From NCBI GenBank assembly GCA_903888645.1, contig CAISUK010000193.1:1-44111 (forward strand): a stretch of 44,111 nt of DNA. Direction: 5' to 3'. Below the pieces are notes generated by a model. It saw nothing but the letters and a program-made list of their open reading frames with translations, had not been told where the DNA came from and searched no databases. Every line of letters starts with the position of its first letter. Positions within the stretch are counted from its first letter, which is position 1. The DNA comes from an uncultured Pseudomonadota bacterium (GTDB taxonomy: Bacteria > Pseudomonadota > Gammaproteobacteria > Burkholderiales > Rhodocyclaceae). The position numbers were made by a program, and so were the translations under genes. Below, in pieces: positions 1,726-18,409 of the stretch.

Positions 1726-2561
1726 GGTTGTGGTTCCTCGGGCTTGTTTGATGCGGCCTGCGCGAGTCGTCCTTCAAGCACCGTGCGCCCGACAAAGCCT
1801 TCGCTGCGTGATCCGTCTGCCCAGACCAGGGTAGGTGTGGCTTGCACACCCAGTTGTCGGGCCAGCGCCAGGTTACGATCGATGGGGTGAGGGCACGGGG
1901 CGCCCGTGTTCAGTAACGTGCTGTCGCCCTGCTGCATCAGGCGTTGCCAGGCTTCCCTGCGATCTGCCGCGCACCAAATGGCGATGGGTTGCGCCTCACC
2001 CTGGAAGGGGACGAGAAAGGTATGGATCGTGACGTTGTCGATTCCGGCCAGTTCCACTTCCAGTTGCTTGCAATAGGGGCAGTTGGGATCGCTGAAGACC
2101 ACGATCACGCGTGTCCCATCGCCGCGGACGGTCTTGATCGCATCGTCGAGCGGCAGCTGGTCGATGCGTACCGGGAGCGCTGACGTGCGTGCTGTCTCCA
2201 CGGCCACGTCGGTTGATCCATTGGGAATACCCGTGTTGGCGGCCTGCGCCAACTTCGGGCCGGTGAGATCCTGCATCGTCACCGTGTCGAAGAGTCGACC
2301 GAAGAGGAAATAGCGTGGATTCCTGGCTGAAACGTAGGCGACGTTGCCGTTCATCCAGACTTCGTAGAGGCCGGCGACCGGGGCGCGCGTTACGGCCGTG
2401 AAGTGCGTACCCGGATGGGCCAGTTGCAAGACTTTCAACAATCGGGTTTCGTCAGCAGTTGCTGCATGGGCGACTTGAGCCATTCCGAGCCACCCGGCGA
2501 CCATGATCGTGACCAGGTGCGTGGCTCCCACTCGGCTGCCCACAAATTCAGTCGTTACCAT
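1722..2561 (-). CDS. DsbC-family thiol:disulfide interchange protein
   Basis: Thioredoxin-fold active site [12 protein letters not shown]-terminal signal peptide, C-terminal PT...G motif region. Embedded in the transfer operon. Confidence 0.85.
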
Positions 2562-3942
2562 CGTCGGCGGTCTCCAGGCTGCGGGCGTCTGGCGAAGCAG
2601 AAACCCGTTGGGTCGGGGTCGTACTCGCCGTCATCGGGACATCGATGCGCACGCCCTTGGTGATCACCACATCGATCTCGCGACCGGCATCCACTTCGAT
2701 GACCGGAAAGGTGTTCTCGGCCAGCTTGATGTAGTACTGGGCGAGGCGGTCGAGCGCCTTGCCGACGCCACTGCCGAGGCCGGCGCGATAGGCCTCCGCG
2801 CCGGAGGTGCTGGCCACGGTACCCAGTGCCGACGTGCTGTATTCCGTCGAGGAGGTGGCGAGTCCTTGGCCGATGCCGCTGACCACGCCGGCCAGCAGGG
2901 CATTGGCGAGCATCTGGCCCTGCTTGGTGACCAGTCGCCCGCGCATGCCGACTTTGCCGTCCTCGCCATAGACGCTGCCCTGGATCTTCACTTCCAGCGT
3001 CGCGCCGTCGGCACGCACGCAGGAGAGGTTCTCGGTACGCAGGTAGGCGCGCTCGGAGCTGATGTCGCCGTAGCCGGCGGCGATCACGAAGCAATCGCGG
3101 TAGCCGCCGCGAAACCGGTTGGGTAGCACGCTGTTGTCCGAAAGACGAATCAGGACCGGGTGGGGATTGGTCTGTGACTGCCCGCCGGTGGGGGCGTCCA
3201 GCCCGCCCAGCAGCATGCCGCGCGCAAAACTGACCGGCAGGAAGGTGGCGGTCGTGCGGGGACCCAAATCGGCCGATGTGGCGCCGGTCGCGGTGGCGGG
3301 AGTCACGTTGGTTCCAACCGCGGATTTCGCTCGGTCGACGAGGGAGATGCGGGTGATGGCCGGCACCGCCGGCGTCAATGGCGTGAGCGAAGTCAGGTCG
3401 CCTGGCGGTCCACTCGGCAGCATGCTCGCCGAAGGCGATTTAGCGGGTGGTGGGGCCGGCGGCAGGTTGGAGGCGGGTGGCATGCCAGTCGGCGTGGTTG
3501 CTGGTAAAGACGCTGATGGCACGGGCTCCGATGGCATTGGTGCCGGGGCCGCTTGTTGAGTGGACGTCAGCCGTTGTTCTAGTTCGCTAAAGCGCTGCAA
3601 GGTGCGCGCTTCAAAGGCCTGGCGGTCCTTGTTCAATCGCCCCTGTTCTTCGCGCTCATTCTCATACTGGGCGAGCTTGCGTCCGGCGTTACCGACCCAT
3701 TGATCGACCGGATTGACCTGACCGCCCGGCGGCATGACGCCGATATTGGTGACGGTGCCGGGTTGTCCAGCCGGCGACCGAGCCTCGTTCTTTGTTGTGC
3801 TGCCGGTCAAGGCAAAAATCAGCCAGAGGATGCCCACACCGCCCGCCACGATGACTCCGAGCAACGCATATTGGCGCTGTCTCGGCGAGAGACGCTCGAT
3901 CAGACCGCGCACGGCGTTGCCCGGCTGAGGCAGCTGATTCAT
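2548..3942 (-). CDS. TraB/VirB10-like ICE protein (TIGR03752-type)
   Basis: 464 aa. N-terminal TM segment, coiled-coil region, Pro-rich linker and conserved C-terminal beta domain. Position between the TraK-like and TraV-like genes. ATGA overlap at 3939-3942. Confidence 0.8.
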
Positions 3943-6192: not shown

Positions 6193-6867
6193 TCATGGCC
6201 GATCCTCTCCCCGGATAACGACTTCGACGCGGCGGTTCAGGGCGCGATCGGAAGCGTTGTCGTTTGATGCGATGTAGCAGCAAGCGCCTTGCGCGCTGAC
6301 GATCAGTGCAGACGCCAGCCTGGGATGTGATCGGCGCAGGTAATCGCGGACCGCGTGCGCGCGCGCCCAGGCCAGCGTTTCATTGGCGGCCTGTGGTCCC
6401 GTGCTGTCGGTACGGCCCGTGATCGTGACGCTATGCGCCGTGATGATGTCCGCGGTGGCCTGATCCAACCGCGCTTTTGCAGCGGGACCCAGCGTCGCGC
6501 TAGCGAACGCGAATGGAATGGTGATCGTTCGCGGCGATTCGGGCGGCCTTGCGGACGTGTTCACGATCGAATCGGGAATGATGGCTTGGCCGTGTGCAGG
6601 CAAATGGGTGCCGTCGATCCGTTGGTTTGAGTTGCCGGTGGCAAGTGTCTTGGGTGTTCGTGTCGGGCATGCCGGCGGGATGCATCGCGCGAATGCCGCG
6701 TCAGAATCGAAGTCGATCTGAGCAATCCGCGCGGCGGCTGCGACTGGTGTATCCGTGACTGCGTGGGCCGAAGGTTTCACGGGTGGTGGACTGCATGACG
6801 ACACGAGCAAGCCGAAGCCGCCAGAAATGGCGAGTCCGATTAAACGATGTTGGTATTGCGGCGTCAT
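6193..6867 (-). CDS. OmpA/MotB-domain lipoprotein (peptidoglycan-binding)
   Basis: Lipobox LLVSSC. C-terminal OmpA-like motif ITGRTDSTGPQAANETLAWARAHAVRDYL...NRRVEVVI. ATGA overlap with the transglycosylase gene at 6864-6867. Confidence 0.8.
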   Translation of the reverse strand: MTPQYQHRLIGLAISGGFGLLVSSCSPPPVKPSAHAVTDTPVAAAARIAQIDFDSDAAFARCIPPACPTRTPKTLATGNSNQRIDGTHLPAHGQAIIPDSIVNTSARPPESPRTITIPFAFASATLGPAAKARLDQATADIITAHSVTITGRTDSTGPQAANETLAWARAHAVRDYLRRSHPRLASALIVSAQGACCYIASNDNASDRALNRRVEVVIRGEDRP

Positions 6868-7400
6868 GGCGAAACCCTCACTGACATCAGTGCGGGAATC
6901 GCGGTCGCGGTTGGACGGAATGATTTGGCCGCATATGAGCGACCTTGCGAGGGCAAGTTGCGATAGACCCGCCAGGCATACTGGGCACGAGTCTTGGCGC
7001 AGGACTCCCGATCAAGCTGTGAGCACGCGGCGTTGTAGGCGCCGACACCATTCCACGTCGCGCCGTAGCGCGAAAAGCAGTCGGCGAGCAGCCACGCGCC
7101 GACCTGAATGTTGGTGCAGGGCTGGTAGAGATCGGTTTCCTTGATGCCATGGCGGGCCAAGGTATGCAGGTGGCCACTATTGATCTGCATGAGCCCGATG
7201 TCATAGGACCCGGTGTGCTGGGTGTGTGAGCGATTGATCGCCCTTGGGTTGAGGTTCGACTCGACCTTGGCGATGGCATAGAGCAGGTCGGCCGATACGC
7301 CGTAGCGCTGTGCTGCAGCCTCCCAGCAAGCCTGCGCAGGGGCGGGTGTGATCGCGAGGGTGGTCAAGGCAGCCAAGGTGACAGACGAAGACAGACGCAC
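6864..7400 (-). CDS. Lytic transglycosylase (SLT domain)
   Basis: Signal peptide and the SLT catalytic motif AIAKVESNLNPRAIN...YDIGLMQIN. GTG start with AGGA upstream. Confidence 0.85.
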   Translation of the reverse strand: MRLSSSVTLAALTTLAITPAPAQACWEAAAQRYGVSADLLYAIAKVESNLNPRAINRSHTQHTGSYDIGLMQINSGHLHTLARHGIKETDLYQPCTNIQVGAWLLADCFSRYGATWNGVGAYNAACSQLDRESCAKTRAQYAWRVYRNLPSQGRSYAAKSFRPTATAIPALMSVRVSP

Positions 7401-7600
7401 GAGGTCCTATCCAACAGATCCGGAAACACCCGCCAGTGGGCGGGCAACAAGGTCTGGGCCGTCGGCGGTGCGCGACGGTCGGGGTCGGGTTCGGGTGGTT
7501 ACATCACCTGGCGAGCCAGGTGATGCGAGGTGCGCGGGTCAGAAGCGGGTGTATTGCAGGTGAGTGGCGATGAATGACAACGGTTGAGGCGAGACTGATT

Positions 7601-8095
7601 TCAGCTGGAAGAACCTGTCCAACTTCGTTGGGCGCGTTCCACAATGTTGCGGCGTGCCTGTTGCAGGACGGCGGATCCCGAAATGTCCCAGGAGCGGCAG
7701 AGGGCGACGCATGCCGTTGTCAATTGGTCGAGTTGAAACTTGGGATTGGGGTGGCGGTTTTGTGGAGAGCGCTGCAGGTCCAGCAGACACTGATACTGCT
7801 GACGCCACATCGATTCGCGACGACGTGGCGTCAGCGGTTCGCGTAGCACCAGTTCGGTCCCCAGGAACTGAAAAATGAGTGAAGCGGCATTGTTGTGGGC
7901 AAAGACCAGCGAGACGCAAGCGCTGATGAGATCGGGGAAGCGGAAGGTTGGCGAGACGTTGTTGTGGCTGCGCAGCAGGCCGTAAAGCCAATCGTGCTCA
8001 TCGAGCCATAAGCGCGTCTCGATGACATCCTGCGTTTCGCTCTCCGCTGCGTGACGTGGGGCGGTGTGGCGATGAGTCGTTGTCGCGGTAATCAC
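7601..8095 (-). CDS. Hypothetical protein with internal tandem repeat (possible double ribbon-helix-helix)
   Basis: 164-aa ORF with a GTG start and GAGG 9-12 nt upstream. Two related segments: TFRFPDLISACVSLVFAHNNAASLIFQFL and KFQLDQLTTACVALCRSWDISGSAVLQQA. No family recognised. Confidence 0.5.
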   Translation of the reverse strand: MITATTTHRHTAPRHAAESETQDVIETRLWLDEHDWLYGLLRSHNNVSPTFRFPDLISACVSLVFAHNNAASLIFQFLGTELVLREPLTPRRRESMWRQQYQCLLDLQRSPQNRHPNPKFQLDQLTTACVALCRSWDISGSAVLQQARRNIVERAQRSWTGSSS

Positions 8096-8366
8096 GGCGC
8101 TGACCTCGATTCAGTGGCGATGGGTTGCAGTGCATTACGCATGACCGAAGTCTAGGCAGTTAGGACATTGGAGTCTCAGCGGAATGCCCGTCTTGTGGCG
8201 GGGATTTCGCGATTAGCATAGCGATCGATAGATTGCTTTCAATGCCAATTGCGAAATGCGATCGTTGGTCCGGATACCGGCAGGCTGAGCCAGGCGTACA
8301 TCCGTAGTCGACATACCCTTTAAGGCATCGATCGCTCGGGTCGAGCTTTCGCATGCGAGATTCATG

Positions 8367-9233
8367 CTACCAAGGCAGCTCGAGATAAAACGACTCGATT
8401 CGCGCAAACGACTCCTCAAATGCGGGCAGGTCATCACCGATATCATCAGCCAATCCAGCGTATTCGCTAGCAGCCATGGCCTTGATCTGTGCATCGCTGA
8501 TGGAGCGCGGGTTGGCTTCGATACCTCGCGAAGCGCAGGACTTAAGGATGTAGCCTGCGATCTGCATACGCTCGTGGTCCGACAAGGGCGCACAGCGACA
8601 CAGCAATAGGTACAAGTCATACACATCCTGCCGCCGATTGCGATGACGGAGTGGCTGCTGCAGCAATGCCCGGTACTTCTCGGCGATCAGGTTGCAAAGC
8701 CCATAGGTCTGGAGCTGCTCGCCGCCCTGCAGGGACAACACTTCGACGTCATACACAGCTTCGTTGTAACTGTGGTCAATCTTGACCACGTCGGGCGACA
8801 TTCCTGCCTTGAGGCGGGCCATGTGCGACGGATTACTGCGTGAAGCGTAGCCGATGCTCAGTTTCAGGGCCGGAAAACTCCCGACCTGGTTGGCCGGAGA
8901 TAGGATGGCGCCTTGCAGTCGACACACGATATCGTAAGGCAGTTGCTGATTTGTCCACTCGAGCTGTGCTTCAAGTTCGGCAAGCAAGGCCTCCTGGTCC
9001 GCACTGCTCCACATTTCGTGTGTGGAGAAGTCGATATCCTTGGTGAACCGGCTGCTGTCGTAGCGGATGGCCATGAGCAGCCCGCCCTTCATGATCATCC
9101 TTGAGCGCAAACCCACGGACGTACTGATGGTCATGAGGACGATATGCACCGCCTGGCGAAATCGGCGCTGATTGGCGGGTGCCGCTGCGACCCAGTGCGC
9201 CAAGTCCAACTCATGCAATTCCTCAGCGTTCAT
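8367..9233 (-). CDS. abiEii: AbiEii/AbiGii-family nucleotidyltransferase toxin (DUF1814)
   Basis: Motifs MKGGLLMAIRY...RFTKDIDF (NTase G-x-D-x-D) and KYRALLQQ...RRQDVYDLYLL. Start taken at ATG 9233 (MNAEELHELD...), overlapping the abiEi stop by 11 nt. The track ORF extends to 9344. Confidence 0.85.
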   Translation of the reverse strand: MNAEELHELDLAHWVAAAPANQRRFRQAVHIVLMTISTSVGLRSRMIMKGGLLMAIRYDSSRFTKDIDFSTHEMWSSADQEALLAELEAQLEWTNQQLPYDIVCRLQGAILSPANQVGSFPALKLSIGYASRSNPSHMARLKAGMSPDVVKIDHSYNEAVYDVEVLSLQGGEQLQTYGLCNLIAEKYRALLQQPLRHRNRRQDVYDLYLLLCRCAPLSDHERMQIAGYILKSCASRGIEANPRSISDAQIKAMAASEYAGLADDIGDDLPAFEESFARIESFYLELPW

Positions 9234-10146
9234 GTCCAGCCTCGCTCCGAGAGGCCAGCGACGGAACGTTGATCGACAGCTGCCAACGCTCCGAATAATT
9301 TGGCGAATACTCGTTTTCTGGATCGAGTTTGCGCGATCCGCCACGCTGAGCGCAGGTTTGCCAGGAGACTATCGTTGCGTGTTCCAAATGGCAGACTTCC
9401 GTCAGCAAGAATCCGGCACGAACCTTGTCGATGGCCGAGCCATTGCGCTCGACCTCATCGATGATTGTCCGTAAGTGCCGCGTTGCTTCTCCCTGAAAAA
9501 CATCGATGACGTGCTGAATACCACCGCACAAAGCCGGCTCGCGCAGCATGTCGAGAAAGACCCGACCGATCGTCGCTACGCGCAGTGGTGATCCCGGGAC
9601 GTGGCGAAAGGCTCCCAGTTGCGAGCGTTCGTGAAATTGCACTGCCGTTTGACCGATGCGGGTCAGGTTCAATCGCGTCAGCTTCGGCAATCCGCTGGCG
9701 ATATAGTCGTCAAACCGCTCCCCGAGCTCCTTGTGCATGCGTTCCCTGGCCTGTTGACGCCATTCGCCAGTTGGGGGCACCGACATGAATGCGACGGCGG
9801 GAAATCGGTCGGTTAGCCCATGATATTCCATGGCACTCAGATGTGAGACGTAGGCGAACGGATCAAGGCTGCAGGCGACCTGCTGGGCCGTGGCATGGCC
9901 TTGGCCGAAGAGCAAATAGGCATGTACGCCGCTCTTGAGCGGCAATCGCGTCAGCAGTCCGACATCGACCAGATGATCGACGACCCCGTGATACAGGGTC
10001 TTCGCTTCTGTATTTTTCCGAGCCATCTGCAGGAACACTGTCTTGGCCAGCTCATATGGCGATACGGCAGCCAGTCCGGCTGAGCTTAGTACCTGGCTCA
10101 CCCTGCTGATTTGTCCCTGCTCGACAATTACGGTAGGCATATACAT
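9223..10146 (-). CDS. abiEi: AbiEi-family type IV TA antitoxin / transcriptional regulator
   Basis: Contains the AbiEi-typical SHLSAMEYHGLTDRFP block. Sits immediately upstream of and overlapping abiEii. ATG at 10146 or 10140. The TTG at 10173 used by the track lies inside the predicted promoter. Confidence 0.8.
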   Translation of the reverse strand: MYMPTVIVEQGQISRVSQVLSSAGLAAVSPYELAKTVFLQMARKNTEAKTLYHGVVDHLVDVGLLTRLPLKSGVHAYLLFGQGHATAQQVACSLDPFAYVSHLSAMEYHGLTDRFPAVAFMSVPPTGEWRQQARERMHKELGERFDDYIASGLPKLTRLNLTRIGQTAVQFHERSQLGAFRHVPGSPLRVATIGRVFLDMLREPALCGGIQHVIDVFQGEATRHLRTIIDEVERNGSAIDKVRAGFLLTEVCHLEHATIVSWQTCAQRGGSRKLDPENEYSPNYSERWQLSINVPSLASRSEAGHER

Positions 10147-10189
10147 TGACTGATAACGTTGTCCTAAGGACAACGTTATCAGTCAATGT
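10143..10189. repeat. Pal1: perfect 47-bp palindrome (23-nt arms, 1 central nt)
   Basis: ACATTGACTGATAACGTTGTCCT-A-AGGACAACGTTATCAGTCAATGT read directly. Overlaps the abiEi start codon region and the predicted -10. Confidence 0.95.
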
Positions 10190-10201
10190 GATGATTGTCA
10201 A
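10173..10201 (-). promoter_or_regulatory. Candidate sigma70 promoter of abiEi-abiEii
   Basis: On the minus strand: perfect -35 TTGACA (10196-10201), 17-nt spacer, -10 TAACGT (10173-10178). Spacer and -10 lie inside Pal1. Confidence 0.5.
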
Positions 10202-10327
10202 GTCTTGGCGGTTATCGATGTTGGGCGACGAGGTGAGGCCGACGGAATTGCACCAGGCGGTTCGGAAGATGAGATTTTGAAACTATGGCAGACCAAGAGT
10301 CGATACACCCCAACATCGACATCGATT

Positions 10328-10374
10328 CCACTGACCGTATAATGCGTCCTTAGGACGCATTATACGGTCAGTGG
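10328..10374. repeat. Pal2: perfect 47-bp palindrome (23-nt arms, 1 central nt) related to Pal1
   Basis: CCACTGACCGTATAATGCGTCCT-T-AGGACGCATTATACGGTCAGTGG read directly. Shares the outer CAnTGAC and inner GTCCT blocks with Pal1. Each arm contains TATAAT. Confidence 0.95.
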
Positions 10375-10451
10375 CGGTGGCTGTTGATGTTGTCCCCAGG
10401 TGAAGCGCCAATTGAGCATCTTCGATCCAGGAAGTGGCAGAGCATTCGTTC

Positions 10452-11075
10452 TTAGCCGCGGCGATGGAAACACCCTAGCGTCCGCCCGACCAACACGCCG
10501 ACCACCAGTGGCGCACAAGGCAGCAGCAGCGTGGGCAATGTCAGCGGCACCACGAAGCCTATGACGGTTGCGCAGAGCACCACAATGCCCAGGCTGGCAT
10601 ATAACGCAAACATCTCCGGATCGTGCTGCAGGAATTCCTTGGCTTTGATCACTCGTGTGCATCCACCATCGGCGATGGCCGCCAGAACGAATACGGCGAG
10701 CCAGGGTAGCCAATAGAGCAAGGTCGACAGCCGATAGCTGGCAAGTAGAAACAAAGCGTCGACAGAGCGGAAGTAACTGTTGTTGAAAAGCCGCTGATTG
10801 ACCGAGAACATTTCCTGCGACACTGCGCCACTCACGCTGCCTGGCAAAGGCGCATCCTTCACCGCAGGGATCGGTGTTACGCTGGCCGTATCCTCTTGCA
10901 ACTTCAAGGCTCGATCGAGCATGCGCGTCGCAGTTTGGTGTCCCCAATAAGCCTCAGCGGCCTCATGCTCGGCGCGTAGCTGGGCCAGAAACCGTTCCGG
11001 CGGATTGGCCGAAGGTACATACAGCACCAGAATGAGCAGGCAAAGCAGCGAAAGCAAGGCGACGGCGCGGATCAT
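10452..11075 (-). CDS. ICE membrane protein, DUF4400 (TIGR03747-type)
   Basis: 207 aa with an N-terminal TM and three C-terminal TM segments. ATGA overlap with the traD stop (11072-11075). Canonical partner downstream of the MPF-G coupling protein. Confidence 0.75.
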   Translation of the reverse strand: MIRAVALLSLLCLLILVLYVPSANPPERFLAQLRAEHEAAEAYWGHQTATRMLDRALKLQEDTASVTPIPAVKDAPLPGSVSGAVSQEMFSVNQRLFNNSYFRSVDALFLLASYRLSTLLYWLPWLAVFVLAAIADGGCTRVIKAKEFLQHDPEMFALYASLGIVVLCATVIGFVVPLTLPTLLLPCAPLVVGVLVGRTLGCFHRRG

Positions 11076-12967
11076 GCCACTGCCTTCACTGACGCGCGAT
11101 CTGGATCGAGGATCGGAAACCGCCCCTTGATGATCCGGCCCCCTGACACCGAAGCGAAGTACTGAAGGTTGGGAAGCTTGCCAAGTACGTCGGCCGGTAC
11201 CATTTCCTCAAAGCTCTCGGCGAGCTGGGTGGAGTAGCTCGACGAGAAATCGCCGAGGTGGGCATCTGAGCCGTGGCTGAGACCCACTCGGACGGTATGA
11301 ATGGCCGTCTTGCCGAAGGTCTCGACGACGAAATCCTGAGTGGGCCGATCCTTGGTGCGCAAGGCGATCAGGTTATTGAGATTGCCTAGTGCCATGCGCG
11401 CAGCATCTTCGCTGCCCAACCGTTTGGCGAGGTCCGCCAGCGTCTGCATCGCGCAGGTCGTAAAAATACCGCCCTCGGCGCCCTTGTTGAGGATCTCGAT
11501 CAGCGGCGGGTTGATGACGTTCGATACCTCATCGACAAACAATGCGATGCGCCGATAACTGCCTAGGTTGTAGCGCATGCCGGCACGCGCCGCCTGGTCG
11601 GCCAGCGCCAGCGCTCCGATGGCCGATGCCACCGATGGATCCGGCAAAGAGTCCAGACACATATAAAGTACATGACCGGCGCGTTCGATCTTTTCGAAAT
11701 TCATGATGGGCCGGGTATCGTCGGCATCGAAGGGATCGGGGGAGAGGCTTCGTCCCAGATCGCCCGAGGTCAACATCGACAAGATGGGTAGCAGGTTGGC
11801 CGTGATCTTCTGGTAATGCTCACGGTTGTGGCGAAACGTCCGCACCTGGGCATCGATCACCTTGTTGCGCTGGTTCTGCGCGACGTGGTGCTCGTAATAG
11901 CCGACCAAGGCCATCAGGTCGGCGCTGGTGGCTTCCGACGGCCGTCTCATGCCGCCGCGATGGGCATCGTTGAGCAGTTTTTTCATGTCGGGCTGGTCGC
12001 GCCAGCCAGCGCCCAGCGTCTGCTCGTAATAGCGGCGCAAAGACGCCTCGAGGACTGGCTCGATGCCACCCTCGATGTACTTGGCGAGTTTCATCAGGTT
12101 GGGCCGCTCGTCGATTTCGATCAGGCCCTGCACCACTACATTGACCGCATCCCAGCCAAACGCGGAAAACGCGCCTGCCGTATCCGGCGGCATGATGGAC
12201 TGGATGCGCGAAGCAATCTCGGTGGGTTTTTGCCAGTTGAAGGTGAAGTCCAGCCGCACCCCACGATCCGGAAAGGCGGGATGAAACTCCATGAAAGTGC
12301 CTGGCTCGCGGTAGTCGGCGCAAGCACGTTCCACCACACGCTTCAAGCGCCGACTATTTTTCGGATCGATGACGATCACGACGTCGCCGCGCTGAATCGC
12401 CTGGGTGATCAGGTTGGCCAGCGCCACGCCCTTGCCGGACTGGGTGGTCCCGACCAACAGCGTGCCACCCTCGAAATTCTGCAACGGCCGACGTAGAGCA
12501 CCTTCCTTCGGTTCGACGCCATGGATGTAAGGGAGACCGATCTCGCCATCTGGCTGTGGTTTGCCGCCGTAGCCCAAAAGACCTAACAGGCGGGGCGATA
12601 CGGCAAATTTCCGGTAGTCGATCTTGGCAAGTTCGTAGAGTCGCTGCGAATGCACTGGCTGCCACTCAAAGCCAAAGCCGAGAAAAACCTCTGCCGGGTT
12701 CGTGCACCAGCGCGCCAGTTCGTCGGTGCCGATGACCTGAATGGCGCGCCCGCCCAAGGACGCACGCAGGACCAGCATGCGCAATGCCTGAGTCATACGC
12801 ATTACGCCCATCGCGAAACAGATGAGTGCCAGCGGCAGAGCCAGTTGTTCCGGCAGGAAACCAGTAGCACCAATCGCCATGAAATACAGCAGCGCCAGCC
12901 ACCAGACGAGCGCGGCATAGACTTCGTAGGCCCGCCGCCAGGGCATTTCGTAACGCCGCGCCAGCAT
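11072..12967 (-). CDS. traD: Type IV coupling protein TraD (TIGR03743-type)
   Basis: Two N-terminal TM helices, Walker A VGTTQSGKGVAL, Walker B-like IALFVDEVS. Start taken at ATG 12967, 1 nt after the upstream stop. The longer track ORF (to 13249) overlaps the upstream gene. Confidence 0.9.
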   Translation of the reverse strand: MLARRYEMPWRRAYEVYAALVWWLALLYFMAIGATGFLPEQLALPLALICFAMGVMRMTQALRMLVLRASLGGRAIQVIGTDELARWCTNPAEVFLGFGFEWQPVHSQRLYELAKIDYRKFAVSPRLLGLLGYGGKPQPDGEIGLPYIHGVEPKEGALRRPLQNFEGGTLLVGTTQSGKGVALANLITQAIQRGDVVIVIDPKNSRRLKRVVERACADYREPGTFMEFHPAFPDRGVRLDFTFNWQKPTEIASRIQSIMPPDTAGAFSAFGWDAVNVVVQGLIEIDERPNLMKLAKYIEGGIEPVLEASLRRYYEQTLGAGWRDQPDMKKLLNDAHRGGMRRPSEATSADLMALVGYYEHHVAQNQRNKVIDAQVRTFRHNREHYQKITANLLPILSMLTSGDLGRSLSPDPFDADDTRPIMNFEKIERAGHVLYMCLDSLPDPSVASAIGALALADQAARAGMRYNLGSYRRIALFVDEVSNVINPPLIEILNKGAEGGIFTTCAMQTLADLAKRLGSEDAARMALGNLNNLIALRTKDRPTQDFVVETFGKTAIHTVRVGLSHGSDAHLGDFSSSYSTQLAESFEEMVPADVLGKLPNLQYFASVSGGRIIKGRFPILDPDRASVKAVA

Positions 12968-12968
12968 C

Positions 12969-14672
12969 TCAGCTTCGCTCCTGCGGTACAAGAACAAACC
13001 CGGCCAGATCGAGGCCCGCGACAAAGCGCGGGTCGAGCACGATGCCGACCGTGACTTTGCCGTTGAACTCGCGCGACAAGGTCGGCGGTTCATCTTGGTT
13101 CGGCTTGACCAGCAAGGCTGTTTCGGCAAGTGCACGCATTGCCAAGGACGGCTGAACGCTACGTCTTGTGAATTCCTCCAGCGGAACGAACACCCCTTGG
13201 GCAATAGTGCATACCGTGGCCGGGCACATGGCCTGGTTGAGGGTGTCAATGGCCTTGGCCAGGGCGTCCCGAACCGCAGGATTTAGGCGCATGGGGGCTT
13301 GCAAAGCGAAGCGTGGCGATGGTGGTGCCGAATCTGTTTTTGGCGAGGCTGCCTTGGGCGTTGGGTCGACCGGAGTTATCGGTACTTCGTGATCGGCAGC
13401 GGGCTCAGTCGCAGGAATCAGTGAAAGCTGGGTGCCGCTTTTCACGGATTTCGGCGACGGCTGGGGGGTAGTTGTCGATGATGGTCTGAACTCCAGCATC
13501 TGGGGCAGCGCCGCTGGGGTTGGATGCATGGCCGCCAAGAGGATGGACGGGGAAGTCAGCTTGACGGCTTCCAACGGCGCCTTCACACCGGGTGGCAGGA
13601 TCGACCAGGTAGATCTACCGGCCGCCGCCGCTTCGAACACTTCGGCTGCCATGAACACCTCCAGCATGGTCTCAGGTGCTAGGCGCATCCCGGCCAGTTG
13701 ATCCGCCTCAAGCAAACGATGAACATCGTCTCCAGCGCCTGGCCACACTAGAAACAGCCCGTCTTGACCGAACCACAGTCGCGATTTCTCGCGATTGGGG
13801 ATCCAGGCTGCGTTGACCTGGGCCAGTCGTCGCAAGGCGTCAACCAAGTAGCGCTCGAGGTGCGAGCCATGCGCCGGCGAACCATGGCGATCGGCATTGG
13901 CGGCAAGGTTGCGATCAATCACCAGTGCTAGCGAGCGGCGAACGAGTTCGTCGAGGATATTGTGGTCGCGATAGATCGGAATGCCGCTGATACTTGCCAA
14001 GAGGTGTGGCACGATGACCGTGTTGCCTTCGGATAGATACAGCATCACAGCGGGTGATACCACTTGGGGCAGGGCGAACAAGCCCAGTCCTCGCGCTTCA
14101 ATTGTCTCTGGGCGCCATCTCAGGAAATAGCGCTTGCTGCCACGGCTTGTCAGCCAGTCGGCCAATGGCAGCAGAAAAGCTGGCCACGTTTCGCCAGAGT
14201 CATTGGTGACGATGACGTGACTCATCAGACGATGCAACTCACAGCACAGGCCGGCGAGGAATGTTGCGTGCCGCCAGCGTGGCTCCAATTGGCGGCGAGC
14301 GGTGATGTTCATCCGCCCGGCGAAGATGTGCGCGTCCGTACCCTGCAAACTGAAAAATGCGGTTTCCATTCCGAGTCGCAGCAGGCCGCCCGGCTGGTTG
14401 AAGTAGTTGTCGGCGGTCGCTGGCAGAAGATGGACGCAGGCCGCATAGCGGCGCACCAGCGTCATGACGTCGCGCTCAAAAGTGCTTGAGTCGGTGCCGT
14501 AGCAGAGCTTGATGCGGGCGATCAGCTGGGCTTCACCAGCCAGCAGTTCTTCAACCGGGATGGCAGCGAAACCCGGGTCCGGGGTAGTGTAGGTGCTGGC
14601 GAGAGGAGGGGGAATGGCCATGGCCGCGCTGCAAAGCATGGACGTCATGCGATCCGCCCATTCTTCGTTCAA
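12969..14672 (-). CDS. traI: TraI-like protein (MOBH / TraI_2-like putative relaxase)
   Basis: 567 aa with block RYAACVHLLPATADNYFNQPGGLLRLGMETAFF resembling the LPAS..HH..GGL..H.LE core of TraI_2 proteins. Pro-rich linker and C-terminal domain. Sits directly upstream of traD as in ICEclc. Start is TTG 14672 or ATG 14648. Confidence 0.6.
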   Translation of the reverse strand: MNEEWADRMTSMLCSAAMAIPPPLASTYTTPDPGFAAIPVEELLAGEAQLIARIKLCYGTDSSTFERDVMTLVRRYAACVHLLPATADNYFNQPGGLLRLGMETAFFSLQGTDAHIFAGRMNITARRQLEPRWRHATFLAGLCCELHRLMSHVIVTNDSGETWPAFLLPLADWLTSRGSKRYFLRWRPETIEARGLGLFALPQVVSPAVMLYLSEGNTVIVPHLLASISGIPIYRDHNILDELVRRSLALVIDRNLAANADRHGSPAHGSHLERYLVDALRRLAQVNAAWIPNREKSRLWFGQDGLFLVWPGAGDDVHRLLEADQLAGMRLAPETMLEVFMAAEVFEAAAAGRSTWSILPPGVKAPLEAVKLTSPSILLAAMHPTPAALPQMLEFRPSSTTTPQPSPKSVKSGTQLSLIPATEPAADHEVPITPVDPTPKAASPKTDSAPPSPRFALQAPMRLNPAVRDALAKAIDTLNQAMCPATVCTIAQGVFVPLEEFTRRSVQPSLAMRALAETALLVKPNQDEPPTLSREFNGKVTVGIVLDPRFVAGLDLAGFVLVPQERS

Positions 14673-14707
14673 CTATCCCGCCAGTCGCTTCGAAAAGCCT
14701 AATATTC

Positions 14708-15340
14708 CTAGGGGATATCCCGTTCTGACTCAACACTGGGGTGATGACTGGGGCCCAGCCTACGAAGATGACTCGCTGTCGTTTGCAGCGTAGTGCGAAT
14801 TGGGTAGGACGCCTGAATGCGGTGGTCCACATGAAAACGCTCAAACAGCTTGCAGAATGGACAAGGCTGACCGCGTTGAGCGACGGTGCCGACCGCGGCA
14901 ATGAACTTGCAGGCGCAATCTTGGCAGCTCAGAATGGATAACGCCGATGTGCTTGCCAGCCAGATACCTTCGATGTAGGAGACGAGGTTGAAAGCCCGGT
15001 CCAGGCTGATGCGGAAGGGTGGCAGGGTCGTAGCCTGGTAGGCGCGATAGGCAAGTATCAGCGCCTCGCCTGGTATGAGACCCTGGTCACGCAGCTGCTG
15101 GTACTTTGCACCGATGACGCAAGCGTCGATACGCATGATCAGGTTGGCCCCGTAATACCAATCGGCAGAATCCGGGGCGCGCCCACGGGGAATGCTGAGG
15201 ACATCCGGGAAGAATAGACTTTGAATCTGGCGTGGTGGGATGCCAGTGATCAGATGAATCGTCTTCAGGCGTGCGCCGAGCGCCGTCAATTTTTTTGCTT
15301 GCTGAACGGCACGGAGGTGCCGATCGCCTCGAGTCGGCAT
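14708..15340 (-). CDS. FlhC-like transcriptional activator subunit (SetC/AcaC-like)
   Basis: LTALGARL, PRGRAPDSADWY and AYRAYQ blocks align with FlhC. Four Cys arranged C-x2-C...C-x2-C (SCQDCACK...CPFCK), like the FlhC zinc site. Confidence 0.75.
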   Translation of the reverse strand: MPTRGDRHLRAVQQAKKLTALGARLKTIHLITGIPPRQIQSLFFPDVLSIPRGRAPDSADWYYGANLIMRIDACVIGAKYQQLRDQGLIPGEALILAYRAYQATTLPPFRISLDRAFNLVSYIEGIWLASTSALSILSCQDCACKFIAAVGTVAQRGQPCPFCKLFERFHVDHRIQASYPIRTTLQTTASHLRRLGPSHHPSVESERDIP

Positions 15341-15355
15341 GAGTGTCGGTTCCTT

Positions 15356-15652
15356 TCAGCGATCATTCATCGGCAAGGGCGGACGCACCAGGGACAGGGG
15401 CCCGGCCAGTGGGCGCGGTGTGCTCAGTAACACGACGAGATCGGTACGTGGCGGAAACAAGGTGGTGTCGCCAATGTGTATCACCAGAGACCACAGGTCG
15501 TCGAGGCTCATGTTCCGCAGATGGTCGGCCTGTGCCGTGTTTAAGGCGTATTTGGAGCACGCTGCCGCAGAGTCATTTTGAAGGCCGGCACGGATGACGG
15601 CCAGCACATGAAGATTGATCCATTCCACGTCGGTAAGAGTCCTTTGACTCAT
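15356..15652 (-). CDS. FlhD-like transcriptional activator subunit (SetD/AcaD-like)
   Basis: 98 aa. WINLHVLAVIRAGLQNDSAAA...LSLDDLWSL...LFPPR aligns with the FlhD helices. ATG 15652 has AGGA 9-12 nt upstream. Sits immediately upstream of the FlhC-like gene. Confidence 0.65.
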   Translation of the reverse strand: MSQRTLTDVEWINLHVLAVIRAGLQNDSAAACSKYALNTAQADHLRNMSLDDLWSLVIHIGDTTLFPPRTDLVVLLSTPRPLAGPLSLVRPPLPMNDR

Positions 15653-15940
15653 GGTCTTGTTCCTTGGTTGGCCCAAGTAATGTAGGTTTTTCGGGCATCG
15701 GTGGTCGAAAATTATCGTCAGATATTCCCGTCAAGATCCAGGTCTCGACGAGCCGGCTCAGCATACGTATTACATAGATGTCATGGCAATGGCGGATGCC
15801 ACGAATCTTTGTTCCTCGATGTTGTTGCCACACGCAAGGCCTGGCTAAAGCCGTCGATTGGGGATTCGCGGTGCTGTCGGTGAACGAAGGGACATGGTCG
15901 CGACGATTGCTGGTGCGCGTAGATCACTGCCGCTTACCTG

Positions 15941-15979
15941 CTGCAAGAAAATGCCACTCACCCGGGGGCGAGTGGCATT
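15941..15979 (-). terminator. Intrinsic terminator after the DUF932 gene
   Basis: 10-bp perfect stem AATGCCACTC/GAGTGGCATT (15950-15959 / 15970-15979) with a GC-rich loop. Followed on the minus strand by TTTCTT. Confidence 0.55.
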
Positions 15980-16053
15980 GTTGGGTTGCTTGCATTAATC
16001 CTTGCTGGAACCAAATGGTGACTCGGACAGCTTGCCTGGCTTCTTGCCCCAGG

Positions 16054-17118
16054 TCAGGCAGCTTCGGCCAGCCCCTTCCACTCATGGGCCGCCAAATCGA
16101 TCAGCCGGCCACCCAGCGCTTCAAACTCCGTCGCGCGATCGTAATCCTCGACCTCCTGGCTGTAGTGAGTCACGGCATTGACCAACCCGTAACCTGACAG
16201 CTGGCCTTCTTCGATCAGGTGGCGCAACACGCCGGCCCGCTCGTTGTCGTTCAAGGTATAGCGTTGCGCCAGTACCTCGACCGTCTTCACCGGGTCACCC
16301 AACAGCGGGATGTTCAAGGTCTTTTGCAGCTTCTGTGCCGTCTGGCGGAAGGTTGCCTCCGACACTGCCGCCTGCACCACGTCGCGCACTTTCAGGAAAA
16401 ACGCCTGGTCATCGGCACGCAAGGTGTCTTCCTGATAGACCTGAATGGCGTCATCCGTGCCACCCAGCGCCCGACCCACGTGCGTCTTGCGCAGCGAGCG
16501 GTCGGGGGCGATCAGGCCGTTGCGGCAGATCAGCCGGAACAGCAATGGCTGCACCGACAGCGTCCCCTGACCGACCTCCGAGTTCGAGATCACGACGCCG
16601 GCCTGCACGACATCACCGGGCGCCATTTCGTATTTCAGGCGTGGCGTGATGCACTTCAGGTACATCTTCGTCTCGGTCAGTTCGACCGACTCGAAGCGGA
16701 CCTCGGGCAGTTGCTGCAGGATGGGCAGCACACTTTCGGCCAGGTCGAAATTATCCAGACGACGATAGCGGTCGGACAATACCGCGCGCACCTGACCGTC
16801 CAGAGTTCGCAGCATGCGCCGGTCATCGTCGCTTTGCAGCCAGGTGTTCACGTTGCGGTCCAGCAACACCGGTTGCTCTTCGCGCATGCGCTCAAAATAC
16901 GCATACGGAATCTTCAATTTTTCGGCCAGTTGGCGTCGGGCCAGCGGCGTGACGCCATAGCGCACCGGACTGCCGCCTTCCTCGACGACGATTTTCGTCT
17001 CGCCACCCTCGGCGGTGGTGTGGTGCACGAGTTGCGAGGGCACGATCAAGTCCTTCTTCGAATGCAGCTGGCGCTCCAGTTCCTGCGCCAGACCAACGAG
17101 AGAACGTCCAATCTTCAT
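16054..17118 (-). CDS. DUF932 domain protein
   Basis: Blocks RAVLSDRYRRLDNFDL, TKMYLKCITP and VISNSEVGQGTLSVQPLLFRLICRNG are typical of DUF932. ATG 17118 has GGAGA upstream. The N-terminal extension in the track ORF is low-complexity. Confidence 0.75.
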   Translation of the reverse strand: MKIGRSLVGLAQELERQLHSKKDLIVPSQLVHHTTAEGGETKIVVEEGGSPVRYGVTPLARRQLAEKLKIPYAYFERMREEQPVLLDRNVNTWLQSDDDRRMLRTLDGQVRAVLSDRYRRLDNFDLAESVLPILQQLPEVRFESVELTETKMYLKCITPRLKYEMAPGDVVQAGVVISNSEVGQGTLSVQPLLFRLICRNGLIAPDRSLRKTHVGRALGGTDDAIQVYQEDTLRADDQAFFLKVRDVVQAAVSEATFRQTAQKLQKTLNIPLLGDPVKTVEVLAQRYTLNDNERAGVLRHLIEEGQLSGYGLVNAVTHYSQEVEDYDRATEFEALGGRLIDLAAHEWKGLAEAA

Positions 17119-17348
17119 AGCAATCTCCAATTCAAGAATGAGCGGGCACGGCATCACCCACTCGTGGGGATGCGCATCCCCAAGGGGGTTGATAACGAGC
17201 CGGCGATGGCCGGTCCCAAATGGCGCGAATCGAATCGCGCCTGAACTCCAGGGCTGTCTTCGCGGCACCGTGCGGTGTCGCCTGGTCTGACAACTACCAG
17301 TGGTGCAAAAGAAATTTTTCGCGGTCACCGCGCCCTGCAGCGACCCTG

Positions 17349-17390
17349 AAAAAGCGGGTGGGTCCCAATCGCAGCATGGGACCGCACCCC
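17349..17390 (-). terminator. Intrinsic terminator after the primase-like gene
   Basis: Hairpin GGTCCCA/TGGGACC extended by 5 more pairs across a 1-nt bulge. Followed on the minus strand by TTTTT (17349-17353). Confidence 0.55.
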
Positions 17391-17398
17391 GAATCAAT

Positions 17399-18409
17399 TT
17401 ACGCCGCACGAGATGCCTGAGCCGGCCAACGCTGCCGCCAGACATCGGCCCAATCGCTGCCCGCGTTCTTGGGAACGAACACGCGCACCTGCCGCAGGTT
17501 CGTTTTCTTCCCTTCGCGTTTCAATCGACGCGCCAGGGCATAGGCGAAGGCCTGGCCGGTGAAATCGCCATCGGCATCGTTGTCGGCATAAATGCATACC
17601 GCGCGTACCGTTTCCGGCATCCACAATTTCTCCAGGTTGCCGGCGCTGAGGCCAGCCCAGACCGGCTTGCCGGTCGCCAGGTGTACCGCGATACCGGTCT
17701 CGATGCCTTCGCTGATCGCCAGTTCCTCGGTGGCGTCGAAGAGACGCACTGCGGCTCCGTTGATACCGGCAGAGAGCACTTTTTTTGCATCGTGGGCCGC
17801 CAGCTTGCCGCCGTCCTGAAGGTAGGTCCGGTGCAGCGTCACGGCATGCCCATCAGCGCCCTGGATGCAGGCCAGCATGGCCGGGTACTCGGCGACCTTG
17901 CGTGACTTGCCGCTGGCATCTTTCTGGTAATAGCCGAGCGCGCCATGGCAGCGCAACACCTTCGGATACGCCGGCAGTGCCAAACTCCGGCCGCTCAGGT
18001 AGCGATCCACCTCGTCGCCTGCCGTGACCGGACGGGCTTCGTTCCAGATGCGCTGCGCAAGCTTCTTCATGGGCGTGGTGGTCGGCTCGGAAGTACGACA
18101 AGTCGCTGCCACAGGCATCACGCCAAGGCAGCGCTCGACATCACGCAATGCCGTGTTGAAGTCCACCCCCATTACCGCCTGCAGCAGCTTGAAACCGCCG
18201 CCCGGGCCACATTGGCGGCAGTGATAGTTGCCCTCGCCGAACTTGTCGGTGTACTGGAAGCGATCCGACCCGCCGCAGAGCGGGCAGGGCAGGTTGCGGC
18301 GCTTGAGAATGGTTTCTGCCACACCCAACGCCGCAAGGATCTCCGTCCAGCGACCATGGGCCCGCTGCTTGACCGTCTCGATGCGTTGCGCATAGTCACG
18401 ATCCTGCAT
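17399..18409 (-). CDS. Zn-ribbon + Toprim primase-like protein
   Basis: CPLCGGSDRF...YHCRQCG zinc ribbon (primase-helicase type). Toprim motifs ISEGIETG and YADNDADGD. ATG 18409 has GGGAG upstream. 14-nt overlap with the upstream GHKL gene. Confidence 0.8.
   Translation of the reverse strand: MQDRDYAQRIETVKQRAHGRWTEILAALGVAETILKRRNLPCPLCGGSDRFQYTDKFGEGNYHCRQCGPGGGFKLLQAVMGVDFNTALRDVERCLGVMPVAATCRTSEPTTTPMKKLAQRIWNEARPVTAGDEVDRYLSGRSLALPAYPKVLRCHGALGYYQKDASGKSRKVAEYPAMLACIQGADGHAVTLHRTYLQDGGKLAAHDAKKVLSAGINGAAVRLFDATEELAISEGIETGIAVHLATGKPVWAGLSAGNLEKLWMPETVRAVCIYADNDADGDFTGQAFAYALARRLKREGKKTNLRQVRVFVPKNAGSDWADVWRQRWPAQASRAA

Follow-up and report, generated by a model that had tools for sequence, protein, structure and literature searches.

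The locus described here raises the question of why two long and perfect DNA palindromes stand directly in front of the gene for an AbiE-type antitoxin. The window, which is the whole stretch of 44,111 nucleotides (nt) that was analysed, comes from contig CAISUK010000193.1 of an uncultured Pseudomonadota bacterium and contains the genes abiEi and abiEii, preceded by a proximal palindrome, Pal1, and a distal palindrome, Pal2. Palindromes of this type are cis-elements of one AbiEi clade, where they are located upstream of nearly every homologue and are usually paired. Pal1 and Pal2 are probably two operator sites of the AbiEi protein that is encoded just downstream of them, and we infer its binding, the repression, the transcription starts and any cooperation between the sites. 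The palindromes themselves, their association with the AbiEi clade, the enrichment of promoter motifs, the covariation of the arms and the fold of AbiEi were established by computation. AbiE systems are among the most widespread phage-defence toxin-antitoxin families and, to our knowledge, their regulation has been studied in two proteins only.

Pal1, the predicted proximal operator, is located at 10143-10189 (arms 10143-10165 and 10167-10189), and Pal2, the predicted distal operator, at 10328-10374 (arms 10328-10350 and 10352-10374), with TATAAT in both of its arms. Each consists of 23+1+23 nt, with arms that are 100% complementary around a single central nucleotide, as an earlier sequence-only reading of this DNA had described. 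A motif search of the window placed the cores GTCCTAAGGAC (GTCCT-A-AGGAC) of Pal1 at 10161-10171 and GTCCTTAGGAC (GTCCT-T-AGGAC) of Pal2 at 10346-10356. The same reading had called the arms related around a GTCCT-N-AGGAC core and had put the centres 185 base pairs (bp) apart, and both statements were reproduced: 13 of the 23 arm positions are identical without gaps, and the centres lie at 10166 and 10351. For a perfect palindrome with 23-nt arms, the chance expectation in 44 kb is about 6e-10, and beyond these two, no further long palindrome with a short loop or copy of the Pal1/Pal2 architecture was found in the 44-kb window. Folded as single strands, Pal1 reaches -24.2 kcal/mol (z -13.6) and Pal2 -26.6 kcal/mol (z -14.0).

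Related palindromes were collected in two sets. The first set was ascertained by protein, using an AbiEi profile that yielded 73 genome loci with 32-66% identity, which together with the window comprise 435 kb and span Betaproteobacteria, Desulfobulbaceae, Xanthomonas and other groups. In these sequences, there are 123 palindromes whose perfect arms measure 12 nt or more around a 1-nt centre, and 121 of them contain the core [GA]TCCT-N-AGGA[CT]. Relative to the estimated start of abiEi, all core palindromes fall in the range -445 to +2, and the centres of the proximal ones are mostly found 20-30 nt before the start codon in the homologues. Two palindromes are present at 46 loci, one at 22, three at one and four at one, and the four loci that have none are truncated or very distant. 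The modal length of the perfect arms is 23 nt (49/121), with a range of 15-34. The second set was ascertained by DNA and was blind to the protein: the pattern AATNCGTCCTNAGGACGNATT was searched against metagenomes and returned 114 stretches, 107 of them with arms of at least 18 nt. An AbiEi gene lies directly downstream and in the correct orientation in 100 of these 107, and the seven exceptions are mainly contig ends, together with one orphan before a SoFic-like gene and one between unrelated genes. The clade is large, with more than 2000 homologues detected, including plasmid copies in Xanthomonas, Klebsiella, Salmonella and E. coli. That the palindromes belong with abiE was therefore upheld by both sets, and a check for abiE-independent dispersal, as expected of repetitive extragenic palindromic (REP)-like elements, gave two copies in 44 kb and, elsewhere, copies almost solely upstream of abiEi.

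Alignment of the family palindromes on their centres, with 106 protein-ascertained palindromes used for the core and for covariation, shows that the core TCCT-N-AGGA is invariant, that the flanking G/C pair is nearly invariant and that the next pair (C/G) is usually kept. A TAnnnT hexamer is present at -13 to -8; distal palindromes have it as a strong TAnAAT and proximal ones in a weaker form, and the distal class as a whole has a strongly conserved TAnAAT-gC-GTCCT motif. The outer 10 arm positions hold no information content in this alignment. For the -35 element, TTGACA-like hexamers (at least 5/6 matches) were tallied around 125 proximal and 123 distal palindromes. Around the proximal palindromes, they peak at -36, -33 and -38 from the centre on the abiEi-facing side only, and with a spacer of 16-18 nt they are found in 45/125 on that side vs 3/125 on the mirrored side (Wilcoxon p = 1e-4). 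The distal palindromes have them at -36 to -38 in 45/123 on the outward side vs 8/123 at the -36 peak on the abiEi-facing side; with a spacer of 16-18 nt, the numbers are 42/123 outward vs 13/123 abiEi-facing (p = 4e-7). The -35 boxes lie in the stretch that separates the two sites, 7-12 bp beyond the edge of the palindrome. A -10 at -13 to -8 puts the predicted transcription start at the centre of symmetry, which makes back-to-back divergent promoters the usual layout. By these motifs, each palindrome is predicted to overlie a sigma-70-type promoter, the proximal one facing abiEi and the distal one usually facing away.

The hexamers of the window, both of the abiE promoter (P_abiE) and of the outward promoter on the plus strand (P_div), match the family geometry. 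P_abiE is predicted on the minus strand, with a -35 TTGACA at 10201-10196, in which TTGAC is invariant at this place in the closest relatives, and a -10 TAACGT at 10178-10173, within the Pal1 arm and 17 nt after the -35. Its start is predicted at about 10166, the centre of Pal1, so that Pal1 extends from -10 to about +23 of the promoter and the ATG of abiEi is located at the outer end of the arm. Core bases AGGA would form +2 to +5 of the predicted abiE mRNA, 15-20 nt before the ATG. In Pal2, P_div was detected by a promoter scan with 11/12 consensus positions: its -35 TCGACA (10316-10321, plus strand) is followed after 16 nt by TATAAT (10338-10343), with a predicted start at about 10350-10351, and the predicted transcript would enter the DUF4400 gene at its 3' end, in antisense orientation. 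For Pal2, the scan also gave an alternative minus-strand promoter directed at abiE (TCAACA at 10387-10382, 17 nt, TATAAT at 10364-10359; 10/12), and Pal2 could therefore fire toward abiE as well as outward in this window. Most of this had been proposed in the sequence-only reading and was borne out at the level of sequence, namely the minus-strand promoter at Pal1 with its perfect -35, the abiEi start codons at Pal1 (ATG at 10146-10144 inside the arm and a second ATG at 10140-10138), the TATAAT in each arm of Pal2 with its plus-strand -35, and the leftward reading from Pal2 into abiE. A terminator scan detected no terminator-like site in 9900-10700 and neither palindrome is followed by a T-run; since no terminator lies between the two genes, read-through from DUF4400 into abiE is physically possible in the window.

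A lone half-site, TGGCTGTTGATGTTGTCCCCAGG, is located on the plus strand at 10378-10400, 3 nt outside Pal2, where it overlaps the TCAACA -35 and is identical to the Pal1 arm at 17/23 positions. A third palindrome may have left it behind, which is conceivable because some relatives have three or four palindromes, or it may serve as an additional binding site.

The AbiEi of the window, the antitoxin and predicted repressor, has 307 amino acids and is encoded on the minus strand at 9223-10146 (PADLOC PDLC02237, E = 6e-96). The nucleotidyltransferase toxin AbiEii is encoded at 8367-9233 on the same strand (PF08843, E = 2e-25; PADLOC PDLC02306, E = 1e-104), with a likely ATG at 9233 that is preceded by a GAGG motif and gives an 11-nt overlap with the abiEi stop codon (9225-9223). 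The bicistronic order AbiEi to AbiEii is observed in 154 related loci. With an AbiEii domain, an AbiEi and the bicistronic overlap all found, the cassette is assigned by sequence to the AbiE type IV toxin-antitoxin system. The AbiEi of the window has no Pfam match above threshold (AbiEi_1 is sub-threshold) and no PDB sequence match, and an NCBIfam search gave no match for any of five local proteins. An AlphaFold2 model built with 25 homologues (predicted local distance difference test score, pLDDT, 83) has as its best PDB matches AbiEi of Streptococcus agalactiae (6Y8Q, E = 2e-4) and then Rv2827c (1ZEL), below which the matches are winged-helix regulators. By this model, the protein is predicted to be an antitoxin with a winged helix at the N-terminus and an antitoxin domain at the C-terminus, like 6Y8Q and 1ZEL. 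The reading of the palindromes as a bipartite operator is supported by inference because S. agalactiae AbiEi and Rv2827c both bind pairs of 23-bp inverted repeats in experiments, and 23 nt is also the arm length here.

In Streptococcus agalactiae, AbiEi binds the 23-bp inverted repeats IR1-N3-IR2 in its own promoter and represses it, with a start 26 nt before the ATG (PMC3985639). One monomer has been shown to bind each 23-bp repeat there. The arrangement in the window resembles that of the S. agalactiae system (Dy et al. 2014, PMC3985639; Hampton et al. 2018, cited through PMC7319586), with two inverted 23-bp repeats in the promoter, upstream of overlapping abiEi and abiEii genes, a repressor with winged-helix and C-terminal domains whose counterpart here is modelled with the 6Y8Q fold, and a short leader (measured there, about 20 nt predicted here). 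The two AbiEi proteins share no sequence similarity detectable in the Pfam and PDB searches, and their likeness is at the level of the fold only. The repeats differ as well: the gap is 1 nt here and 3 nt in S. agalactiae, the symmetry is perfect here and has 4 mismatches in 23 there, the core is GTCCT-N-AGGAC here and TGTTGCTTTTA... there, and the palindrome here is centred on the predicted start (-10 to +23), whereas the S. agalactiae site spans -35 to -10. A second palindrome is usual here, unlike in S. agalactiae.

The second known case is Rv2827c-Rv2826c of Mycobacterium tuberculosis (Beck et al. 2020, PMC7319586), in which Rv2827c, the AbiEi-like protein with the related fold, recognises 23-bp inverted repeats that form two pairs within -1 to -131; it binds each of the four, at affinities that differ widely, with dissociation constants (Kd) of 0.02 to 11 µM (PMC7319586). 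Two sets of 23-bp repeats thus overlap a promoter in both systems, over about 130 bp upstream of the gene in M. tuberculosis. In that promoter, 13 bp separate the repeats within a pair and 4 bp separate the pairs, whereas here the gap is 1 nt, the pairs are 81-230 bp apart and each palindrome is perfect. In addition, no divergent promoter is described for Rv2827c-Rv2826c, and this is the usual layout in the present family.

Back-to-back promoters are known from other repressor genes. The tetR/tetA and merR/merT regions have sigma-70 promoters with both -35 boxes in a short spacer and a palindromic operator over each promoter. The outward promoters of the present family share their spacer in the same way. 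Each promoter of tetR/tetA and merR/merT serves a defined gene, whereas the distal promoter here has nothing conserved downstream. A literature search for the core motif returned only unrelated primers and eukaryotic sequences. The principle of an AbiEi operator is known, and what appears to be new is the 1-nt gap, the perfect symmetry, the different invariant core, the centring on the start site and the usual second, outward site. No new kind of system is shown.

Taken as two operators, Pal1 and Pal2 would act as follows. One monomer of AbiEi would bind each 23-bp arm, by analogy with S. agalactiae AbiEi. Bound to Pal1, AbiEi would occlude P_abiE at its -10 and start, and bound to Pal2 it would cover the outward promoter and possibly also the inward one. 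As P_abiE is predicted to drive the overlapping genes abiEi and abiEii, the outcome would be negative autoregulation from two sites.

The distance between the two sites has a regularity of its own. The centre-to-centre distances cluster near 84, 95, 105, 117 and 129 bp, and a Rayleigh scan of 105 unique pairs peaks at 11.25-11.5 bp (z = 21); when proteins are merged at 70% identity, which leaves 60 clusters, z drops to about 6.6. The 185 bp of the window correspond to 84 + 9 x 11.2, and they arise from about 47 extra nt in the spacer compared with the closest relatives. Such distances hint that the two sites are in helical phase. The spacer itself, 10190-10327, holds a perfect 11-nt inverted repeat (10215-10225 with 10309-10319).

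Several points weigh against two AbiEi operators as a complete account. The -10 of P_abiE is weak, with a 3/6 match to TATAAT, and it is missing from the promoter-scan list for that reason. No Shine-Dalgarno motif was seen close to the abiEi ATG, in the window or in the homologues inspected. The direction of the distal promoter varies, and on the E. coli plasmid NZ_CP116083.1 the distal site faces abiEi. In the family loci, the outward promoter has neither a conserved open reading frame (ORF) nor an enriched terminator downstream. A conserved divergent gene was sought among 286 candidate ORFs behind the distal promoter, which fell into 246 clusters, and the shared ones came only from near-identical loci; a small RNA with its own terminator was likewise rejected, with a terminator-like site at 3/39 loci vs 2/39 in the control orientation. 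The periodicity of the spacing loses significance when the proteins are clustered at 60% identity, and the largest cluster at that level shows the same spacing steps by itself. Of the looping or dual control that had been suggested for the two palindromes, an interaction between the sites receives weak support from this periodicity of about 11.3 bp. Finally, the outer 10 bp are conserved neither between loci nor between the palindromes of one locus, yet they are strictly Watson-Crick symmetric, and sequence-specific recognition by one protein does not account for this.

The symmetry of the arms was followed position by position, moving outward from the centre. Complementarity is 100% to position 17, 97% at 19, 90% at 20, 77% at 22 and 58% at 23, and it equals the background from position 24 on. 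Among the 106 palindromes, both partners vary at 21/25 pairs; the covariation score reaches 0.85, compared with 0.17 in shuffled and no more than 0.16 in slid controls, and G-U pairs are virtually absent. Covariation together with the near absence of G-U pairs suggests that a constraint or a homogenising process acts on the DNA, and it speaks against an RNA helix. A recognition sequence that is specific for a locus and common to its outer arms was considered and rejected: the proximal and distal outer arms of one locus are identical at a fraction of 0.30 vs 0.26 for shuffled pairings, an excess that is statistically detectable but tiny. The outer CAnTGAC that had been noted as shared by Pal1 and Pal2 is indeed present in both; as a general feature it did not hold, and the common CAnTGACnG of the window is atypical because the outer arms within one locus are unrelated family-wide. 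The central base differs, A vs T, in 12/14 groups of palindromes with identical arms, and 87% of the centres are A or T.

One explanation for such arms is that extruded DNA, as a cruciform or a hairpin of single-stranded DNA, is sensed by AbiEi or RNA polymerase beside or instead of the duplex sequence. This is unlikely, and it is compatible with binding by AbiEi, the mechanism of which it would alter. It would explain why complementarity is complete up to position 17 and covaries at most pairs in arms whose outer sequence is unconstrained and shows no relation from one site to the other within a locus. The folding energies of the hairpins are -24 to -27 kcal/mol, the A/T differences at the centre are as an inversion of the loop would give, and the divergent promoters would be expected to put negative supercoils into the spacer. 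Through extrusion, promoters that have a palindrome at their centre, as these do, would come to respond to supercoiling or replication; the twin-domain model of transcriptional supercoiling is well established. On the other hand, template-switch correction of quasi-palindromes is known biology and can passively keep the symmetry of a hairpin that has no function. With so many centres being A or T, A/T differences are expected anyway, and the sharp boundary of the arms at 22-24 nt fits the known 23-bp site of the AbiEi protein. The symmetry of the outer arms may stem from selection for an extrudable hairpin or from passive template-switch correction.

A more specific form of this idea is a structural switch, in which extrusion would gate the occupancy of the site by AbiEi or RNA polymerase and would be driven by supercoiling from the divergent promoters, by replication or by a change of topology induced by phage. 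We regard it as quite improbable. If true, the switch would be an input of DNA topology that derepresses AbiE during phage infection, and it would account for the symmetric but unconserved outer arms, for a strong outward promoter without a product and for the phasing of about 11.3 bp.

It is very unlikely that the palindromes act as RNA hairpins, with Pal1 hiding the abiEi start codon in read-through transcripts from the tra operon or from the abiE-facing promoter of Pal2, or with both serving as RNase III sites, roadblocks or insulators. The position of the abiEi ATG within the Pal1 stem, the abiE-facing Pal2 promoter (found in the same orientation on NZ_CP116083.1) and the lack of an intrinsic terminator between DUF4400 and abiE would all suit this explanation. 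However, with predicted starts at the centres of the palindromes, the main transcripts would carry one arm only, and distal promoters with a recognisable -35 mostly face away from abiEi. RNA helices under selection would not be so poor in G-U pairs. No U-tract follows either hairpin, and intrinsic terminators were rejected on this ground and by the terminator scan of 9900-10700. A known RNA family was also rejected, as Rfam gave no match above the gathering score and only microRNA hairpin models below it, with 22-36 bits vs a gathering threshold of 80-100.

The sequence-only reading had further proposed a coupling of AbiE expression to read-through from the conjugation operon. This was not supported, as neighbours of the DUF4400, TraD or SLT type occur in 0 of about 210 other palindrome-bearing loci, and chromosomes and a non-conjugative plasmid of 4.7 kb also carry the cassette together with its palindromes. 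A recurrent context of integrative and conjugative elements or conjugation was rejected on the same count of homologues. The last explanation, that the palindromes are REP-like repeats, ends of mobile elements or recombination sites, a transfer origin or a single-strand initiation site, is hardly credible and is already contradicted: although the palindromes adjoin genes for a relaxase, a coupling protein and DUF4400 and have the hairpin-rich architecture typical of such sites, there are only two copies in 44 kb, those of other genomes lie upstream of abiEi and without these conjugation neighbours, both palindromes lie at the same end of the cassette instead of flanking it, and the same sites occur on the small plasmid and on chromosomes as just described.

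The palindromes provide a cis-regulatory signature for a large proteobacterial clade, which consists of the invariant GTCCT-N-AGGAC core, perfect arms that measure 22-24 bp, a promoter centred on each palindrome and, usually, a second outward site. Such a signature can be used for the annotation of AbiE cassettes and their boundaries, and it leads to predictions that are testable in tractable hosts, for example with the 4.7-kb E. coli plasmid NZ_CP116083.1. Two puzzles accompany it, the arms that are symmetric yet unconserved and the distal promoter without an identifiable product. The former makes these outer arms a natural test case for selection on DNA structure vs concerted evolution of palindromes.

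Individual loci of the family show further variants. The same twin layout is present on small plasmids of E. coli (NZ_CP116083.1, 4715 bp, at 1040-1230 of locus L212), Klebsiella (NZ_AP022203.1, at 1080-1265 of L214) and Xanthomonas citri (pA, at 1010-1185 of L213), all of which lend themselves to experimental work. On NZ_CP116083.1, the distal site has the variant core ATCCT-A-AGGAT and a promoter with TTGACT, 17 nt and TAAAAT toward abiEi, and the Klebsiella plasmid has the divergent promoter layout. Three or four tandem palindromes with a spacing of about 103-136 bp are located upstream in L066, L177, L187, L106 and L145, where they may be duplicated control regions. The most distant homologue (L073, 32% identity) has at 2880-2931 a palindrome with an altered centre of 2 nt, GTCC-TT-GGAC, and the comparison suggests that the core and the AbiEi protein change together at greater evolutionary distance. 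In L150, an orphan family palindrome with 22-nt arms (1560-1604) lies 245 nt upstream of a SoFic-like defence gene with a Fic domain (1827-3005), without AbiEi nearby; a remnant is one possibility, a second regulatory target another. Another orphan, GGGAATAATTCGTCCTGAGGACGAATTATTCCC with arms of 16-18 nt (L137, 2698-2731), is situated between two genes on the same strand, again with no AbiEi nearby. Decoy copies borne by phages were also considered and were rejected, because a viral scan with a looser pattern gave 24 matches, all with arms of 6-13 nt, which is the level of chance.

The genes around the cassette are all located on the minus strand, in the order DUF932, FlhC-like regulator (14708-15340), TraI_2 relaxase, TraD, DUF4400 (ending at 10452), Pal2, Pal1, abiEi, abiEii, SLT (6864-7400) and OmpA-like. 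The backbone at 6193-17445 is that of a MOBH-type conjugative element, in which abiE has the appearance of cargo that entered between DUF4400 and the rest of the transfer genes. A megablast search of a plasmid collection gave no close DNA relative. On the 3' side of abiEii, amid small ORFs, an imperfect inverted repeat is present at 7795-7838, with 18-nt arms that are 89% complementary and an 8-nt loop.

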